From NCBI GenBank assembly GCA_026991575.1, contig JALXBF010000138.1, forward strand, positions 11,099-75,098: a stretch of 64,000 nt of DNA. The letters are read 5' to 3'. This document shows, one piece after another, positions 3,031 through 44,265 of the stretch. Numbering within the stretch: the stretch's first letter is position 1; each line of letters begins with the position of its first letter. The notes beneath the pieces are model-generated. The model was not told the origin of the DNA. It saw only the letters and a program-made list of their open reading frames with translations, and ran no database searches. The translations under genes and the position numbers were made by a program. The stretch comes from Planctomycetota bacterium. GTDB lineage: Bacteria > Planctomycetota > Planctomycetia > JALXBF01.

Positions 3031-3900
3031 TTACCAGTCGATCCGCTCGAGCCGACCGTCGGCATAGGTTACGAAGGTGTGTGCCCCGCACGGGCTCAAG
3101 CCTAGTGCCACGAGCGGCTCGTTCCGAGTGCGCCGTTCGCGCTGGACCACGCCGGCTGCGTCCAACAACACCAGATATCCATCGAGTGTTGCCACGACGA
3201 TCTTGGCACCGGCGAAATCCACGGCTGCCAGCCGACTGCCGGATCGGACCTGGTAGCTGCCCTCGTAGAATCCGTCGGCGCGATAGCGTTCCAGGCCATA
3301 GGTGAACGTGGGCACCAACACGTAGCGGCCAGTGCCTGGCGTGGCCAGCGGTCCCATCGGGCTCCAGACCCGCTCATCCCAGATCGACTTCAGCGCCAAG
3401 TCCATGAGCATCAGGAAGGTTGAGTCGCCTGCCACATACAGCCTCGGCTCGGTCACGACGAAGCACAGTGACCGCGCCGGCCGGAGCGTTTCGGTGCTGG
3501 CCATCTTCGTTCCGTAACGGTCCACCAACAGCAGCTTTCCCTGGTCGGTTCCGACCGCGAAGCATTCGCCGAACACGCTGCTGGCCACAGCCACCGGACC
3601 ACTCAACGGCAGCGTCCACCGCTTCACGAGCGAACCGTCGACGCAGAGCAGCCCCCAGCCCTGCAGCGCAACCAGGACGTACTCAGCAGACGCGTCGATC
3701 GTTGCGTGGGCGATCCGGGAGCGCGACAACTGTCGCTCGGCGACGACGCGCCCCTGGTAGTCGAGTACGAACAGGTGTTGCTCCCCCCAAACGAGCACCC
3801 GGCGTGCCTCGCCCGCCAGTGCCATGCCCGCCAGCGGCACCGGTAAGCGGACCGACGGACCGGCATCCCCGGCTGTTGTCTCGACCGAAGGGTTCGTCAC
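3031..3900 (-). CDS. hypothetical protein with beta-propeller-like (PQQ/WD40-like) repeats
   Basis: Repeated hydrophobic-strand/turn segments (e.g. ...GRVVAERQL, DGSLVKRWTL, GKLLLVDRYG, DGYLVLLDAAG) suggest a beta-propeller. There is no signal peptide. The apparent start is a GTG, so the start is uncertain. Confidence 0.4.
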   Translation of the reverse strand: MTNPSVETTAGDAGPSVRLPVPLAGMALAGEARRVLVWGEQHLFVLDYQGRVVAERQLSRSRIAHATIDASAEYVLVALQGWGLLCVDGSLVKRWTLPLSGPVAVASSVFGECFAVGTDQGKLLLVDRYGTKMASTETLRPARSLCFVVTEPRLYVAGDSTFLMLMDLALKSIWDERVWSPMGPLATPGTGRYVLVPTFTYGLERYRADGFYEGSYQVRSGSRLAAVDFAGAKIVVATLDGYLVLLDAAGVVQRERRTRNEPLVALGLSPCGAHTFVTYADGRLERIDW

Positions 3901-8905: not shown

Positions 8906-9796
8906 CTACGGGGCCGGTGTCAATTCCGCGGTGAAGTCAAGCCAGTGGAAAGAATGGGTCAGCGCGCCGACGCTGATGCGGTCTACGCCGGTTTCTGCTA
9001 CCGCACCCACCGTTTTGAGCGTGATGCCCCCGGAAGCTTCCAGCACGACGCGTGGCGCCACCCGGTCGCGCACCGCAACGGCTTCCCGGAGCAGGGCAGG
9101 GGACATGTTGTCCAGCAGCACGGCGTCGGGCTCACCTGCCAGGGCGTCATGAAGCTCCTGAAGCGTGTCTACTTCGATTTCCACGAACGTTCCTTCGGGT
9201 ACCCGGCTGCGAACCAGGCGTACAAGCTCTGCCAGGCTGCCGCTGCGGCCGCCACGCTGCCACAACAGACGGTGGTTGTCCTTCAGCAGAACCGCGTCGT
9301 AGAGACCAAGACGGTGGTTCTTGCCACCGCCAGCTCGTACCGCGTATTTCTCCAGCAGTCGCCACCCAGGTGTCGTCTTCCGCGTGTCGTAGATGGCAGC
9401 CCTCGTGTGCGAGACAGCGGCCACGTAGGCTGCCGTTAGCGTGGCGATGCCGCTGAGCCGAGCCAACGTGTTCAGCAGGGTGCGCTCAATGGTGAGTAGC
9501 GTAGCGGCCGGACCGGTCAACTCCGCAACACACTGCCCGGCCGTGATCGGTTCACCATCGGCTGCATGCACAATCAGGCGGCAAGACTGCTCGACCGCAA
9601 ATGCCCGCAGTAGCGTGGGGACAAAGGCCAGGCCGGCGAGCCTGCCCGCTTCGCGGCTCACCACGGCCAGACGAGCGCCCTGGCCGGCCGGCACGCACGC
9701 TCGCGACGTGATGTCGCCGGAGCCGCCCAGATCTTCCTCGAAGGCGGCCCGGAACAACCGGTGCGCCGCGGCGCGTTCTGCGGCTGTGGCTGCCAT
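8906..9796 (-). CDS. nadC: nicotinate-nucleotide pyrophosphorylase (carboxylating) / quinolinate phosphoribosyltransferase
   Basis: LLDNMSP and LEASGGITL motifs. Tightly packed after uvrB (a GTG candidate at 9808 overlaps the uvrB stop; ATG at 9796). Confidence 0.8.
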   Translation of the reverse strand: MAATAAERAAAHRLFRAAFEEDLGGSGDITSRACVPAGQGARLAVVSREAGRLAGLAFVPTLLRAFAVEQSCRLIVHAADGEPITAGQCVAELTGPAATLLTIERTLLNTLARLSGIATLTAAYVAAVSHTRAAIYDTRKTTPGWRLLEKYAVRAGGGKNHRLGLYDAVLLKDNHRLLWQRGGRSGSLAELVRLVRSRVPEGTFVEIEVDTLQELHDALAGEPDAVLLDNMSPALLREAVAVRDRVAPRVVLEASGGITLKTVGAVAETGVDRISVGALTHSFHWLDFTAELTPAP

Positions 9797-9804
9797 CGGG
9801 TGGA

Positions 9805-11874
9805 TCACGCTCGAGTTGCTCTCCCCTTGCGCCCGTGCCGCTTACGGCGCCTGCGGCCGTTGCCGCCAGCGGCCAAGGCCAAGTCAGCCTCTTGTTCGCC
9901 GGCAAGCTGGCGGCGCAGGGCCATGATCCGGTCACGCAGCTCGGCGGCCCGTTCAAACTCCAGCGCTTCGGCTGCCGCATACATCTCTTCTTCTAGCTCC
10001 TTGATGTACTCCATCGTTGCCAGCTGCATCTCGCTGGCGTGGATCGCCCGTCGCACGGTCTCCCGTGCCCGGATCTGCTCCTCGATCCCGGCACGGATCG
10101 CCTTCCGGACGGTCTCGGGGGTGATGCCATGTTTGCGGTTGTATTCCAGTTGCAGCTGCCGACGGCGTTCGGTTTCTTCGATCGCACGCCGCATCGACTC
10201 GGTGATCTGGTCGGCGTAAAGGATCACTTCGGCGTGCACGTGACGAGCGGCCCGACCGATGGTCTGAATCAGCGACGTTTCACTGCGGAGGAACCCTTCC
10301 TTGTCCGCGTCCAGGATGGCCACGAGCGACACTTCAGGCAGGTCGAGTCCTTCGCGGAGCAGGTTCACGCCGACTACCGCGTCAAAGGTCCCCTCACGCA
10401 GCTTACGAAGTACCTCGACCCGTTCAAACGCATCCAGCTCGGAATGCAGCCACTCGCAGCGGATCCCCTGGTGACGCAGGTACGTGACAAGGTCTTCGGC
10501 CAGACGCTTCGTCAGGGTGGTTACCAGTACGCGTTCCCCCTGGGCGGCCCGTTTGCGGATCTCGCCCACCAGATGCTGCACCTGTCCTTCGGCCGGCTCG
10601 ACCCGTACCTTCGGGTCAACCAGTCCCGTGGGCCGAATCACCTGCTCGACTACCTCCCCGCCGCACTTCTCCAGTTCGTACGGGCCCGGGGTCGCCGAGA
10701 CAAAGATAACCTGGTTGTGACGAGCTTCCCATTCGTCGAATCGCAGGGGCCGATTGTCCAGCGCGCTGGGCAGGCGGAAGCCGTGTTCGACCAGAGTCTT
10801 CTTACGGCTGTGGTCGCCTGCGTACATGCCGCGCACCTGTGGCACCGTGACGTGCGACTCGTCGACAAAGAGCAAATAGTCCGGGGGGAAGAAGTCGTGC
10901 AGCGTGTACGGCGGCTCGCCGGGTTTGCGGCCACTGAGGTGGCGGCTGTAGTTCTCAATCCCGGGGCAGTAGCCGGTTGCCAGGAGCATTTCGATGTCGA
11001 ACCGCGTGCGTGCTTCCAGGCGTTGTGCTTCAAGCAGCTTGCCTTGCTTACGGAACCAGGCGACCCGTTCTTCCAGTTCCTCTTCGATCGCGGCGACCGC
11101 TCGACGGATCCGGTCTTCGTGGAGCACGAAGTGTTTGGCTGGGTAGATGAACAGTTCGTCGAGCAGCTGCAGGGTCTCGCCGGTGACTGGGTGCACGGCG
11201 GCCAGCTGTTCGATCTCGTCGTCCCACAGTTCGATCCGGTAGGCAAAGTCTTCGTACGGGGGCCAGCATTCGACGATATCGCCGCGCACGCGCAGTCGGC
11301 CGCGGGCGAATTCCAGGTCGTTCCGCTCATACTGGATTGCCACCAGTTCGCGCAGCAGCTCATCGCGCTCGATCCGCTGGCCGACGCGCAGCCAGACGGT
11401 CATCGCGCGGTAGTCTTCCGGCGAGCCCAGGCCATAGATGCACGAGACGCTGGCGACGATGATCACGTCGCGCCGGGTCATCAGCGCGCTGGTAGCGGCC
11501 AGTCGCAACCGATCAAGTTCCTCGTTGATGGAGGCATCCTTCTCGATGAAGATGTCGCGCTGGGGGATGTAAGCTTCGGGCTGGTAGTAGTCGTAGTAGC
11601 TGACGAAGTAGTGCACTGCGTTGTACGGGAAGAACTCCTTGAACTCGGCATACAGCTGGGCGGCGAGCGTCTTGTTGTGCGACAACACCAGCGTGGGCCG
11701 GTTCATGCGGGCGATGACATTGGCCATGGTGAAGGTCTTTCCCGAACCGGTCACGCCCAGCAGGGTCTGGTACTTCTTGCCCTCTTCCAGCCCCCGGCAC
11801 AGCTGTTCGATCGCCTTGGGCTGGTCCCCTTTCGGTTCGTAGGGGGCAACAAGCTGAAAGCGTTGTTCGGCCAT
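9805..11874 (-). CDS. uvrB: excinuclease ABC subunit B
   Basis: N-terminus [25 protein letters not shown]. Walker A GVTGSGKT. Helicase motifs. C-terminal UvrB/UvrC interaction region ([13 protein letters not shown]). Confidence 0.95.
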
Positions 11875-11895
11875 AGCGGTCTCGCTCGCGAGGCG

Positions 11896-12243
11896 TCAAC
11901 GTGAGGCAGCTTCTGGGGCTAGCGGCTTGGGTTGCCTAATGTAGGGTATCAGCCGTTCGACCGTGCGTGGGCCAATGCCTGGCACGGCCGTCAGTTGCCA
12001 CGGGTCGGATACCGGCGTGGCGGCCAGATGGCGGTGCAGCCTTCGGGCCCGCGCCGGCCCCAGCCCTGGCAGCAACTGCAGTTCCGCCCGCGAAGCCGTT
12101 CCCAGGGCAATCCGGTACGTGTGCGGTTCCAGTAGCAGCGGCTGGCCCGATGGCCGGTCCAGGCGGCTGCTCGGATGCTGGAACCAGCTGGCCAGGCCTG
12201 CCAGTAGGACGAGGGCTGCGGCAGGATTGAGCGCTCGGCGCAT
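11896..12243 (-). CDS. ComEA-like helix-hairpin-helix DNA-binding protein
   Basis: Signal peptide/TM MRRALNPAAALVLLAGLASW followed by HhH repeats (ELQLLPGLGPARARRL ... LTAVPGIGPRTVERLIPY). Confidence 0.6.
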   Translation of the reverse strand: MRRALNPAAALVLLAGLASWFQHPSSRLDRPSGQPLLLEPHTYRIALGTASRAELQLLPGLGPARARRLHRHLAATPVSDPWQLTAVPGIGPRTVERLIPYIRQPKPLAPEAASR

Positions 12244-12587
12244 GGTTCTGAGTCGCTCCGGGCGCTCTGCATTCCGCTACTGAATTATTTGGCACCGCAG
12301 GCTGTGTTGGAATGCGGCGCAGTGTTCAAGAATGCTGCGACTTGCTGTTCAATTTTGCACAATACATGACCTATTTTGCAACACCTTGCCCGCTGGATGC
12401 CGGTGCGGCCATCGACCGGCGTGGCCGTCCAATCGCTGTAACCCGTTTTCTGTCGACGTGTTCTGCATCACGCCCGCGGTCGGTGGCCATTGTTGGCACG
12501 GTTTTTGCATGTAAGCCGTGCGGGTGAGCAGAGAAGAGGCGACGTTGCTGACCCAGACCCCCGTAGAGGACAGCGACCCCGTGAGAC

Positions 12588-12629
12588 CCCTTCGGCTCGT
12601 GCCCCCTCCACGAGTCGAAGGGTTTTTTT
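12588..12629 (+). terminator. Rho-independent terminator on the + strand
   Basis: Stem cccttcggctcgtg / cacgagtcgaaggg (13/14 bp), 7-nt loop, followed by T7 (12623-12629). It sits in a divergent intergenic region, implying a short + strand transcript that starts after 12244. Confidence 0.6.
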
Positions 12630-12935
12630 GCCGGTGGCGCGGCACAAGAGTTGAAACTCGCCGGACAGAGTGACCGCTACCAGGCGGCTCAGCTGTGAAA
12701 AAACTTCGTGCAGGGGTTGACAGCCGCGGGCCGCTTGGTCAAACTAGTAATCGCAGTGGGCGTGTTGCAGGGACGCAGTGGGGCGAACGGGCGATTCTCT
12801 TCCCTTCCTTGGGGCGATCGATCCATTCAGGGGCGATTCGGCAACGGGCCCGTCAGTGGGGCGGGTTCTGGTCTAGTCTTCCGCAGCGCGAGGTACCGGA
12901 AGGGAGCGTGTGGTCTAGTCATCTGGAGGTAGGTG

Positions 12936-14135
<1,200 letters not shown>

Positions 14136-14160
14136 GCAGCCCGCGGAACCCGAAGAAAGC

Positions 14161-14197
14161 AACGCCCCGGGCCTTGTCGGCCCGGGGCGTTCCTTTT
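14161..14197. terminator. bidirectional intrinsic terminator between convergent genes
   Basis: GC-rich hairpin aacgccccgggcc-ttgtc-ggcccggggcgtt, followed by cctttt on the + strand and preceded by a U-rich complement on the - strand. Confidence 0.65.
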
Positions 14198-14220
14198 CCC
14201 TCAGGCTCTCACTGCTGGTC

Positions 14221-15354
14221 TCACCAGCTGATGCCCAGCGACAGGAATGCGCCGTGGAAGATCACGCTGTTGTCGTCGTCGTACTGGCCGGGCTGGGCAA
14301 GGTTGAAGGAGAACTGATCGTAGCCGCCCGCGTAGCCAACCAGGTACATCAGCTCGTAGCCGGCACGGATCTCGAAGTTCTCATGGAAGCGCCACAACCC
14401 GTAGAGTCCGGTCTCGACGATGTAGGAAAATTCGGTCTCGTCACGGTCTTTTGAAAACGCTGTGTTGCCGGTGCGTTCCCTCAGGAGCACGTCCGTGTCG
14501 ATGATGTTGATGCCCGCGGAGGTGCGCAGGAAGGCGCGCGCCTCCAGGCCGGGCATCAGCTCATAGCTGCCCACCACGCCGAGCATCCCCGCCAGGATGT
14601 GGTTGTCGGCGTTCGTCACGTAGTCGAAATCCTGGAAGCCAGTGGCTGCAGGTGCCGGACCGTACTGGCTATAGATGCTGAAGTCATCGTCGATGTTCAG
14701 GTAGCGGATGCCGTATTCGGTGGCAAAGCGCAGGCTACTGCCGCAGTCGGTCGGGGCAGAGCACGGGTGGGTCCACGTCCGCTTGATGAGCTCCAGCCCG
14801 GCTGTGTCTGTTTCGTAGTCGACATCGATGTAGCTGACGTTCGTGCCGAAGTCATCGAAGGAGAACGGATGGTTGTAGACTGGCATGTTCACGTTGAACG
14901 GCCCGCTCAGCTGCTGGGACCGGGTCAAGTCATCGACCCACCAGCCCTGAAGTTCCCATTCCGTCCCGTCGCCAACCTGCTTGCCGATCACAAAGCGAGC
15001 ACCGAGCTCGACGCCCGAGTCGAGGTTTTCGCTGCTGATGACGCCAGCGGGGCTGACCACCAGTCCGCTTCCCTCCCACCGGTCTCGCTGGCGCCAGAGC
15101 AGCTCTCCGCGGAAGTACCAGCCGGCCAGCGTGATGTCCGGAATCCAGTGATAGTCCGTGTCCAGAATGCTCCGATCGATGACGATCGACTGGGGCGCTT
15201 CGGCCTTCTGCTCGCCCGGTAGGACCGTTACCGAGACGTCCGGAACGGACGGATAGAGCAGGTTGCCGTCACCGGCGACAGCAGGCTGCACGGCCCAGCC
15301 CGCAGCGCTCAGTGCGCACAGGATCTTGCTCAATCGACGCGCTAGGCGGCCCAT
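14221..15354 (-). CDS. putative outer-membrane beta-barrel (porin-like; BBP7-like) protein
   Basis: N-terminal signal peptide (MGRLARRLSKILCALSAAGWAVQPAVA). Alternating-hydrophobic beta-strand character. C-terminal aromatic terminus ...FLSLGISW. GGGGAGG RBS before ATG 15354. Confidence 0.5.
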   Translation of the reverse strand: MGRLARRLSKILCALSAAGWAVQPAVAGDGNLLYPSVPDVSVTVLPGEQKAEAPQSIVIDRSILDTDYHWIPDITLAGWYFRGELLWRQRDRWEGSGLVVSPAGVISSENLDSGVELGARFVIGKQVGDGTEWELQGWWVDDLTRSQQLSGPFNVNMPVYNHPFSFDDFGTNVSYIDVDYETDTAGLELIKRTWTHPCSAPTDCGSSLRFATEYGIRYLNIDDDFSIYSQYGPAPAATGFQDFDYVTNADNHILAGMLGVVGSYELMPGLEARAFLRTSAGINIIDTDVLLRERTGNTAFSKDRDETEFSYIVETGLYGLWRFHENFEIRAGYELMYLVGYAGGYDQFSFNLAQPGQYDDDNSVIFHGAFLSLGISW

Positions 15355-15488
15355 TACTTGCCTCCCCAAACGATGGTCTCTCACGCGCAGGGTCGGTGCG
15401 AGGCGGCCGGATCGACCGGTCTCACAGAAGTTATCGTCTGGAGCGGAAGGAGCGGTTTAGCCGGATGTGCCACAGCAGCAGGACAGCG

Positions 15489-43502: not shown

Positions 43503-44156
43503 TCACAGAAACGGGTTCGTCCACTTCTCATGGCCGATGGTCGTGCTGGGGCCATGGCCCGGGTAGACGCGGGTCTCGGCCGGCAAACTCAGCAGCTTAG
43601 TACGAATGCTGTGCAGCAGGAGGGCCGGGTCGCCGCCGGGGATGTCGGTACGGCCGATGGAGCCGGCGAACAGCACATCGCCCGCGAACAGACTCCACGG
43701 GGTTGTCGCACGCAGCAGGTAGGCAACGTGGCCGGGCGTGTGGCCAGGAACGGCGAGTACCTCAAAGCTCAGGCCGGCGTATTCGACCGTGTCGCCGTCA
43801 TCGAGCAACACGTCGGCCGGCGGGCTGGTAACCTCAAGCCCTGCCATGAACGACAGGTTCAAGGTTGGATCGGCAAGCATCGGAGCGTCGTTGCGGCCGA
43901 TCAGTAGGGGCGCATCAGGAAACTGCTCCTTCAGTGCTCGGTTCCCCCCGATGTGGTCGCCGTGGCCGTGCGTGTTGAAAATGGCTGCCACGTTCAAGCC
44001 GCGCCTTGCAATTTCTTCAAGAACCCGTAACACTTCAATCCCCGGGTCGATCACCACGGCGTCAGTTTGGCCTTCTTGCCAGACGAGGTAGGTGTTCTCA
44101 GCCAGTGGGGCCGTTTCGATCACGGCAACCTCAATGGCAGGCGGCTCCTGGCTCAT
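43503..44156 (-). CDS. MBL-fold metallo-hydrolase (hydroxyacylglutathione hydrolase-like)
   Basis: HGHGDHIGG (HxHxDH) and VPGHTPGHVAYLL motifs. 217 aa. Confidence 0.8.
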   Translation of the reverse strand: MSQEPPAIEVAVIETAPLAENTYLVWQEGQTDAVVIDPGIEVLRVLEEIARRGLNVAAIFNTHGHGDHIGGNRALKEQFPDAPLLIGRNDAPMLADPTLNLSFMAGLEVTSPPADVLLDDGDTVEYAGLSFEVLAVPGHTPGHVAYLLRATTPWSLFAGDVLFAGSIGRTDIPGGDPALLLHSIRTKLLSLPAETRVYPGHGPSTTIGHEKWTNPFL

Positions 44157-44265
44157 AGGTCGATCCCCGTTGGCACAGTGTTTGCTTGACGGACGCTACC
44201 GACTCGGTTGGCAGCACTCGCGCATGAACCGCACCGGACAGTCCTCCTCGGCATGGAGGTGGCGA

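Follow-up and report, generated by a model that had tools for sequence, protein, structure and literature searches.

A predicted family of sigma-54-type small RNAs kept beside comEA-uvrB in uncultured planctomycetes

Several short regulatory RNAs of Proteobacteria depend on sigma-54 (RpoN) and on an enhancer-binding protein, namely Qrr1-5 (LuxO), GlmY (GlrR), CrcZ and CrcY (CbrB), NrsZ (NtrC) and, in Myxococcus, Pxr. Opening of a sigma-54 promoter requires an enhancer-binding protein that uses ATP and binds upstream. A different set of small RNAs (sRNAs), comprising RsaE/RoxS in Firmicutes, CcsR in Rhodobacter and RepG in Helicobacter, carries C-rich motifs that pair with G-rich ribosome-binding sites (RBS) or leaders. 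These RNAs are not known to be sigma-54-dependent; in RepG, a C/U-rich terminator loop targets a G-repeat leader. ErsA is a sigma-22-dependent RNA of Pseudomonas. Here we analysed a stretch of 64,000 nucleotides from a Planctomycetota bacterium (contig JALXBF010000138.1; hereafter the window), and within it the gap of 692 nt between the start of a comEA-like gene (12243, minus strand) and the ATG of a DUF1559 gene (12936, plus strand). This gap likely contains a stand-alone sRNA gene of the sigma-54 type, at 12494-12629.

Sigma-54 regulons and activators of the NtrC/ZraR type have been predicted in Planctomycetota (PMC12316311). The terms sRNA and small RNA do not occur in this recent phylum-wide survey of sigma-54 regulons (PMC12316311). 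Our literature search returned no sRNA with a defined regulatory input described in Planctomycetota, and nothing on sigma-54 sRNAs there.

Promoter, extent and conservation of the predicted sRNA

Every sequence feature that a first-pass annotation of the gap had listed was recovered, at most a few bases away. Three copies of the heptamer TTTTGCA, for instance, lie at 12353, 12374 and 12503; they are the only ones in the whole 64-kb window (3.7 expected by chance) and all fall inside 160 nt. These copies do not make up a single repeat family. The third is the -12 element of an exact sigma-54 consensus, TGGCAC-GGTTT-TTGCA, that had been missed, and the other two, contained in a pair of ATTTTGCA direct repeats, are not conserved; these repeats could be lineage-specific activator sites or could be there by chance. 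A repeat spotted by eye can thus turn out to be a promoter element. Exact matches to TGGCAC-N5-TTGCW were found twice in the window where 0.11 was expected, both of them intergenic and pointing at a transcription unit. The annotated Rho-independent terminator of the plus strand was confirmed with its 14-bp stem and its U7 tract, the stem including one G-U pair and the loop being 7 nt long. Transcription would start at about 12519-12522, 12 nt past the -12 GC, and the terminator lies about 80 nt further on, which leads to a predicted RNA of about 110 nt. The fold of this RNA is predicted to be more stable than that of shuffled sequences (z = -3.0).

The window is identical to a metagenome scaffold of ENA (JOHN19-1, 470 kb) and to a Logan contig. 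The closest orthologous locus (L083-L086) was reached through the DUF1559 ortholog, which shares 92% protein identity with that of the window. Compared with L083, identity was 47% over 12244-12320, 95% over 12321-12340, 45% with indels over 12341-12491, 33% over 12510-12521, 97% over 12522-12629 and 45% over 12630-12725; in the promoter itself, TGGCAC and TTGC are kept and the spacer is changed. Since identity reaches 97% against about 45% in the flanks, a conserved island spans the predicted transcription start to the U-tract. Within it, L083 differs from the window only by a single substitution in a stem and an indel of 1 nt in a loop. The gap thus holds a unit that has its own predicted promoter, a Rho-independent terminator, no conserved open reading frame (ORF) and a conservation sharply above that of its surroundings, in keeping with a stand-alone sRNA.

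We also checked whether known RNAs could account for the locus. No Rfam family, with Qrr, GlmY/Z, CrcZ, Pxr, RsaE, 6S, tmRNA, RNase P and the riboswitches included, matched at its gathering threshold in the window and five related loci, and a permissive scan of 11800-13400 gave best E-values of 3.8-6.1. The best sub-threshold match was Pseudomon-1/ErsA (RF01719), with 16 bits and an E-value of 4.3 for a gathering score of 50. ARAGORN detected no tRNA or tmRNA.

Homologues in seven lineages

Five further lineages were found through UvrB relatives, whose identity to the UvrB of the window is 86% in L101/L102, 77% in L105, 76% in L106/L107, 76% in L108 and 75% in L109. Homologues of the predicted sRNA are thus present in seven lineages covering 75-100% UvrB identity (the window, L083-86, L101/102, L105, L106/107, L108 and L109), always in the gap upstream of the comEA-like gene and on the opposite strand. 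All seven have in common the sigma-54 element, an invariant core and a terminator with a covarying stem and a C-rich loop. A predicted sRNA family is therefore kept beside comEA-uvrB in at least seven uncultured planctomycete lineages. The sRNA is single-copy and syntenic, with neither terminal repeats nor extra copies. In L101, L105, L106, L108 and L109 it runs towards a convergent gene, whose 3' end it faces, and no gene lies downstream. As five of the seven lineages have no downstream gene, the sRNA would form a stand-alone unit and not a leader.

The promoter follows the family. The GG-N10-GC spacing is exact in 7/7 lineages and the sequence reads TGGCAC-N5-TTGC in five of them, aGGCAC replacing the first half in L101 and TGGCAT in L109. 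Spacer and flanks differ between lineages while GGCAY and TTGC stay. The GGCAY-N5-TTGC motif is located 78-98 nt upstream of the invariant core in 6/7 lineages, and about 81 nt in L109 (manual count), and it is the sole match within the 6-14 kb of each homologous locus bearing the sRNA. With a relaxed promoter pattern, 32 matches were obtained in 1.09 Mb of loci, 13 of which are the sRNA promoter; the background is about 9e-6 per strand-nt, and the probability of a chance match no more than 130 nt away and in the right orientation is about 1e-3 per lineage. The covariance model R1, which detected L108 and L109 at 81 bits, was built on the core and the terminator only. Since the promoter was not part of this model, its presence in L108 and L109 is an independent confirmation.

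Within the predicted RNA, conservation is concentrated at the 3' side. The 5' domain is identical in the window and L083 save for the stem substitution and the loop indel mentioned above; it cannot be aligned in L101, L105, L106, L108 and L109, its length there being 55-85 nt, and no consensus fold was obtained for it across subgroups. Its hairpin 1 (12544-12577) has a 3' arm that overlaps the invariant core. The core motif AGCGACCCCGTGAGAYCCC was found in 13/13 sRNA-bearing loci, which represent the seven lineages, and in 0/96 other loci; as RNA, its consensus across lineages is AGCGACCCCGUGAGAYCCC. In the terminator stem, 91% of cells are paired across lineages versus 35-57% in slid controls, and three pairs show compensatory double changes (U-A/C-G). 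The terminator loop GCCCC(C)UC is kept while the stem sequence changes.

The gap had been described as having no credible ORF. Mechanical ORFs of 42-98 amino acids do exist there, yet none is conserved. A 51-amino-acid ORF that runs through the sRNA is broken by the 1-nt indel of L083. As this indel shifts the frame and as the observed changes preserve stem pairing and not codons, the sRNA is predicted to be non-coding.

The range of the family was explored in three further ways. Among GTDB representatives, whose genome contigs were searched with UvrB, the relatives had at most 73% UvrB identity and showed no similarity to the intergenic region. Metagenome DNA searched with the pattern CCCCGTAGAGGN{6,10}CCCCGTGAG gave 9 chance matches in coding DNA; this pattern spans the variable part, so that it does not measure the range of the family. 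Finally, a scan of viral contigs with the sRNA core gave 0 matches.

Upstream of the promoter, the block at 12321-12340 is a candidate activator site for the sigma-54 promoter, or else an operator or promoter element of the divergent comEA-uvrB operon. L105, L106, L108 and L109 have a block CAGAATnnGACAG that precedes the promoter by about 185 nt. In L101, two near-perfect palindromes, TGATACA-G-TGTATCA and TGTATCA-CTC-TGATACA, are separated by about 35 nt (9350-9415, minus strand), directly upstream of the comEA-like gene and 150-210 nt upstream of the sRNA promoter. They look like a tandem operator for a dimeric regulator and are candidate activator sites as well. All these sites could equally serve the divergent comEA-uvrB promoter. 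No single activator motif is common to the seven lineages: k-mer sharing is weak (TTGAACAG-like), the blocks are conserved within subgroups, and those located 150-190 nt upstream display no clear dyad common to all lineages. A terminator-like site at 12318-12339 was discarded because it falls within the conserved block and has no proper U-tract.

TGTTC/GAACA half-sites also recur between the sRNA promoter and comEA-uvrB (window 12321-12351; L083 about 3440-3470; L101 9255-9290). The window has two copies of TGTTCAA, L083 has an inverted pair of it, and L101 has AGAACA...TGTTCT. These half-sites recall one half of the LexA box of Verrucomicrobia, TGTTC-N4-GAACA, the spacing of which they do not match (PMC4951493). 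They might belong to a planctomycete SOS operator for uvrB or to an activator site for the sRNA.

The second exact sigma-54 consensus of the window, TGGCACAGTGTTTGCT (44171-44186, plus strand), is located about 70 nt upstream of a DUF1571 gene, in the 97-nt gap that separates this gene (ATG at about 44254, plus strand) from a metallo-beta-lactamase-fold gene (43503-44156, minus strand). This match probably marks a genuine sigma-54 promoter that drives a protein-coding gene, and as such it supports the use of sigma-54 in this organism.

Neighbouring genes and the DUF1559 leader

The coordinates of the features of the locus are given in Table 1. The comEA-like gene is the constant divergent neighbour of the sRNA, with synteny in L101, L105, L106, L107, L108 and L109. 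Its protein has no homologue save itself in a set of 5.8 billion proteins, and could for this reason not be used as a search anchor. A gene of the same Pfam type occupies the same position in all relatives; it is uncalled in L083-L086 though its 5' end aligns there. The comEA-like gene appears to be fast-evolving. In the lineage of L106 (8050-8859) and L107 (5152-5961), a short DUF1559/SBP_bac_10 gene of 269 amino acids separates uvrB from nadC as an insertion, a further instance of a DUF1559 gene next to the comEA-uvrB cluster.

Table 1. Features of the intergenic region and of its two flanking genes in the window
Feature	Position	Strand	Remarks
comEA-like helix-hairpin-helix gene	11896-12243	-	Pfam HHH_3/HHH_5; first gene of the comEA-uvrB-nadC cluster
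Conserved block AGTGTTCAAGAATGCTGCGA	12321-12340	not assigned	95% identical to L083, flanks 45-47%; 155-175 nt upstream of the promoter
ATTTTGCA direct repeats, 21 nt apart	12352-12359, 12373-12380	+	contain the first two TTTTGCA; not conserved in L083
Predicted sigma-54 (RpoN) promoter TGGCACGGTTTTTGCA	12494-12509	+	-24 GG 12495-12496, -12 GC 12507-12508
Predicted sRNA, about 110 nt	12520-12629	+	sigma-54 promoter, conservation island, terminator
Variable 5' domain	12520-12571	+	purine-rich GAGCAGAGAAGAGG, then 5' arm and loop of hairpin 1
Invariant core AGCGACCCCGTGAGACCCC	12572-12590	+	AGCGAC (12572-12577) is the 3' arm of hairpin 1
Intrinsic terminator	12588-12629	+ only	stem 12588-12601/12609-12622, loop CCCCCTC 12602-12608, U7 12623-12629
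Predicted sigma-70-type promoter of the DUF1559 gene	12717-12745	+	-35 TTGACA 12717-12722, 17-nt spacer, -10 CAAACT 12740-12745
5' untranslated region of the DUF1559 gene	12752-12935	+	140-185 nt across lineages
G-rich box TGGGGCGAACGGGCGATTC	12779-12797	+	
G-rich box TGGGGCGATCGATCCA	12810-12825	+	
G-rich box GGGGCGATTCGG	12830-12841	+	
G-rich box GGGCCCG	12846-12852	+	
G-rich box TGGGGCGGG	12857-12865	+	
Conserved GCGCGAGGTACCG of the untranslated region	12886-12898	+	
Shine-Dalgarno GGAGG	12925-12929	+	
DUF1559 / prepilin-type N-terminal methylation gene	12936-14135	+	Pfam SBP_bac_10 (DUF1559) 6e-41, N_methyl

The DUF1559 gene is the downstream neighbour of the sRNA in the window and L083 lineages only, where it is located about 300 nt downstream on the same strand. 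Its own promoter was compared in the window, L083, L085, L088, L089 and L090: TTGACA is invariant and is followed at 17-18 nt by cATACT, CAAACT or GACTAT, which places the predicted start of the transcript at about 12752. A simple scan of 11500-13500 for promoters of the sigma-70 type found none, and missed this one owing to the weak -10 hexamer of the window.

The first-pass annotation had seen in this leader more than a plain promoter needs. This holds for the G-rich boxes and for GCGAGGTACC, conserved in five ortholog lineages, and not for a stable or covarying fold. The boxes are conserved in the leaders of orthologs having 74-92% protein identity. Five lineages keep GCAGTGGG at the start of the untranslated region, GGGSCCG, GTGGGGCG, GCGAGGTRCC and the Shine-Dalgarno GGAGG, together with 2-3 direct repeats of GGGGCG-N2-3-CGATCC about 20-25 nt apart. 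The leaders of the window and of L083 also contain an internal duplication of about 42 nt (at 12752-12797 and 3825-3865, respectively), with CGCAGTGGG at 12752 and 12774 and an extra GGGGCGAACGGGCGATTC box. Since L088, L089 and L090 do not have this duplication, the number of boxes in the G-box array varies from lineage to lineage. The repeats that had been annotated are all there: TGGTCTAGTC at 12869 and 12911 (two copies versus 0.11 expected), the GGGGCGA boxes at 12780, 12811 and 12830, and the inverted repeat CTTCCG (12878-12883) and CGGAAG (12897-12902). The TGGTCTAGTC pair and the inverted repeat, which had been stressed, are specific to the window. The fold of the leader is not more stable than that of shuffles (z = +1.33), and the consensus fold, at -16.5 kcal/mol, is weak and draws little on covariation (-2.1 kcal/mol). 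The region 12752-12935 does not, then, behave as a cis-regulatory structure or riboswitch, conservation being found in linear G-rich boxes. These boxes are probably linear binding sites for a protein or an RNA, acting on DNA or RNA. They are a separate lead on the control of an enigmatic, massively expanded gene family.

The promoter and leader recur, with no sRNA beside them, at the DUF1559 orthologs of L087/88, L089 and L090 (74-81% identity). The sRNA of the L088 lineage is found on another contig from the same samples, beside comEA-uvrB. As each occurs elsewhere without the other, sRNA and leader would be independent and merely adjacent in two lineages.

On its other side, the DUF1559 gene is followed by a convergent gene for BBP7, a putative beta-barrel porin, in four lineages: the window (12936-15384 for the pair), L083, L087/L088 and L089. 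The pairing is kept regardless of differences in the upstream neighbours. A GC-rich hairpin with T-runs, AACGCCCCGGGCC-TTGT-CGGCCCGGGGCGTT (about 14160-14190 in the window), is common to both genes and could terminate the two of them. The DUF1559 and BBP7 genes may form a functional module.

Proposed mechanism, alternatives and relation to known systems

In the mechanism we propose, sigma-54 polymerase would bind the -24/-12 element TGGCAC-N5-TTGCA and an enhancer-binding protein, encoded elsewhere, would open the promoter, the conserved block about 155-190 nt upstream being its candidate site. The requirement for an enhancer-binding ATPase follows from the established properties of sigma-54 promoters. 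Transcription would start near 12520 and stop at the U-tract to release the RNA of about 110 nt, in which the 5' domain would be free to vary and the 3' module would consist of the core consensus and of the terminator hairpin with its C-rich loop. Such an RNA would most likely act in trans, its C-rich 3' module pairing with G-rich, Shine-Dalgarno-like stretches of target mRNAs, which would thereby be placed under the signal sensed by the enhancer-binding protein. Action in trans is proposed because of the analogy with sRNAs of the RsaE/RoxS and RepG types, and we regard the C-rich pairing as possible rather than probable. C-runs are conserved both in the core and in the terminator loop. When complementarity was searched for in the window, the best non-self pairing site was located inside a coding region and no target stood out.

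Several observations weigh against a sigma-54-driven sRNA that acts in this way. The start site and the sigma-54 dependence are predicted from the sequence alone, and we infer transcription itself in the same manner. No rpoN gene or gene for an enhancer-binding protein was found in the window and related loci with the GAFTGA, ESELFGH and RpoN-box motifs, and their presence in the genome is taken from phylum-level literature. Among more distant planctomycetes, 37 uvrB loci gave no member of the family. The covariation comes from few events, since the 3' module exists in only about four different versions. In RNAs of the window type the CCCC of the core is predicted to be unpaired, and in those of the L105 type to be paired in a small hairpin, so that the accessibility of the proposed seed is not uniform. 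Finally, full-length duplexes between the sRNA and the DUF1559 leader had energies no better than those of dinucleotide shuffles in three cognate pairs, and seed-only duplexes ranked this leader 6th and 8th among 41 upstream regions of the window. Pairing of the sRNA with the DUF1559 leader is thus unsupported, its complementarity being at the level of chance.

A sigma-54-driven sRNA need not pair with mRNAs: it might bind or sequester a protein (Hfq, ProQ, a protein of the CsrA type or a nuclease) through its 3' module. This module is the conserved part, the 5' end, which is the usual seed, varies, the accessibility of the C-run differs between subtypes, and no convincing target was found locally. 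However, a single short conserved motif is unlike the repeated arrays that are typical of sponges such as CsrB/RsmZ or CrcZ, and the C-rich loop and linker fit the anti-Shine-Dalgarno seeds of RsaE/RoxS and RepG, and we consider protein binding unlikely while giving it some weight. It is very improbable that the promoter, the RNA and the terminator work together in cis, as a leader or attenuator with conditional read-through into the DUF1559 gene, close as this gene is in the window and L083. A conserved TTGACA-N17-cATACT promoter, located past the terminator, belongs to the gene itself; moreover L088, L089 and L090 possess gene and leader with no sRNA beside them, in five lineages the sRNA is directed towards the 3' end of a gene on the opposite strand, and the terminator is strong and invariant. 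Synteny thus largely refutes such a reading.

The first-pass annotation had proposed a transcript of 250-340 nt arising in the AT-rich half of the gap, or else a Cys-rich peptide encoded at 12332-12514. A short non-coding transcript of the plus strand that ends at the U-tract (12623-12629) agrees with our prediction, as does an sRNA conserved in relatives; the size, the origin and the peptide have not stood up, and we find this version barely credible. The region is indeed locally AT-richer (GC 0.555-0.57 across 12200-12499 against 0.60-0.72 in the flanks), and the ORF, which is 60 amino acids long, has its ATG (12332) within the conserved block and is uninterrupted in L083. However, both the conservation and the sigma-54 promoter put the start at about 12520, the interval 12341-12491 is poorly conserved, and the sigma-70-type scan found no promoter to drive it. 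As for the peptide, 10 of its first 30 residues are common with L083 and none after these, the cysteines are not kept, the DNA is 45% identical and no RBS is present, all of which argues against it; an open frame of 60 codons in DNA of about 60% GC is roughly a 1-in-6 chance by our estimate. The least probable reading of all is that the island acts as DNA, for instance as a cluster of protein sites, a recombination site or the relic of a mobile element, the sigma-54-like motif being a coincidence or an unrelated operator. It would suit the sequence-based nature of the evidence for an sRNA and the narrow phylogenetic range of the family, but it would leave aside the compensatory changes, which keep hairpin and T-run on one strand only, the exact promoter spacing in every lineage, and a single-copy, syntenic locus.

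The stand-alone sRNA gene remains the reading that we favour. Its promoter type, its precise predicted ends, its seven homologues and its covariance model would make it an unusually well-defined entry to RNA-based regulation in Planctomycetota, and the sRNA offers a route to what one of the many enhancer-binding proteins of this phylum senses. A more speculative idea, which we hold to be quite improbable, is that the C-rich 3' module (CCCC of the core and GCCCCCUC loop) is a dedicated riboregulator of G-box leaders such as the adjacent one; complementarity was checked for one leader and 41 upstream regions. If true, a signal acting through sigma-54 and an enhancer-binding protein would control part of the very large planctomycete repertoire of DUF1559 proteins, which are pseudopilin-like surface proteins. 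This would be the phylum's first described post-transcriptional circuit, and the conserved linkage to comEA-uvrB might tie it to DNA uptake or damage.

Compared with known systems, the similarity to Pseudomon-1/ErsA consists of a weak alignment over a terminator with a C-rich loop and a U-tail; it is limited to this generic terminator and its score is far under the gathering score. With the C-rich sRNAs, the predicted RNA shares conserved C-runs in the linker and the terminator loop (GCCCCCUC), a G-run-rich leader being adjacent in two lineages, and, with RepG, a terminator loop as candidate seed. It differs from them by the absence of Rfam homology and by a pairing with the adjacent G-box leader that is not above chance. 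The likeness is closest with the proteobacterial sigma-54 sRNAs: a short stand-alone RNA gene with a -24/-12 promoter directly upstream and a Rho-independent terminator directly downstream, an implied control by a signal-sensing AAA+ activator, and a conserved synteny with one neighbour. In contrast with Qrr, GlmY, CrcZ, NrsZ and Pxr, to which no sequence or structure similarity was detected with Rfam, the host belongs to the Planctomycetota, and the conserved part is a 3' module instead of a central or 5' seed. Unlike in the qrr1-luxO arrangement, no activator gene adjoins the planctomycete sRNA. The predicted sRNA thus represents a previously undescribed family, of the same type as the sigma-54-dependent sRNAs known from Proteobacteria but without homology to any of these.

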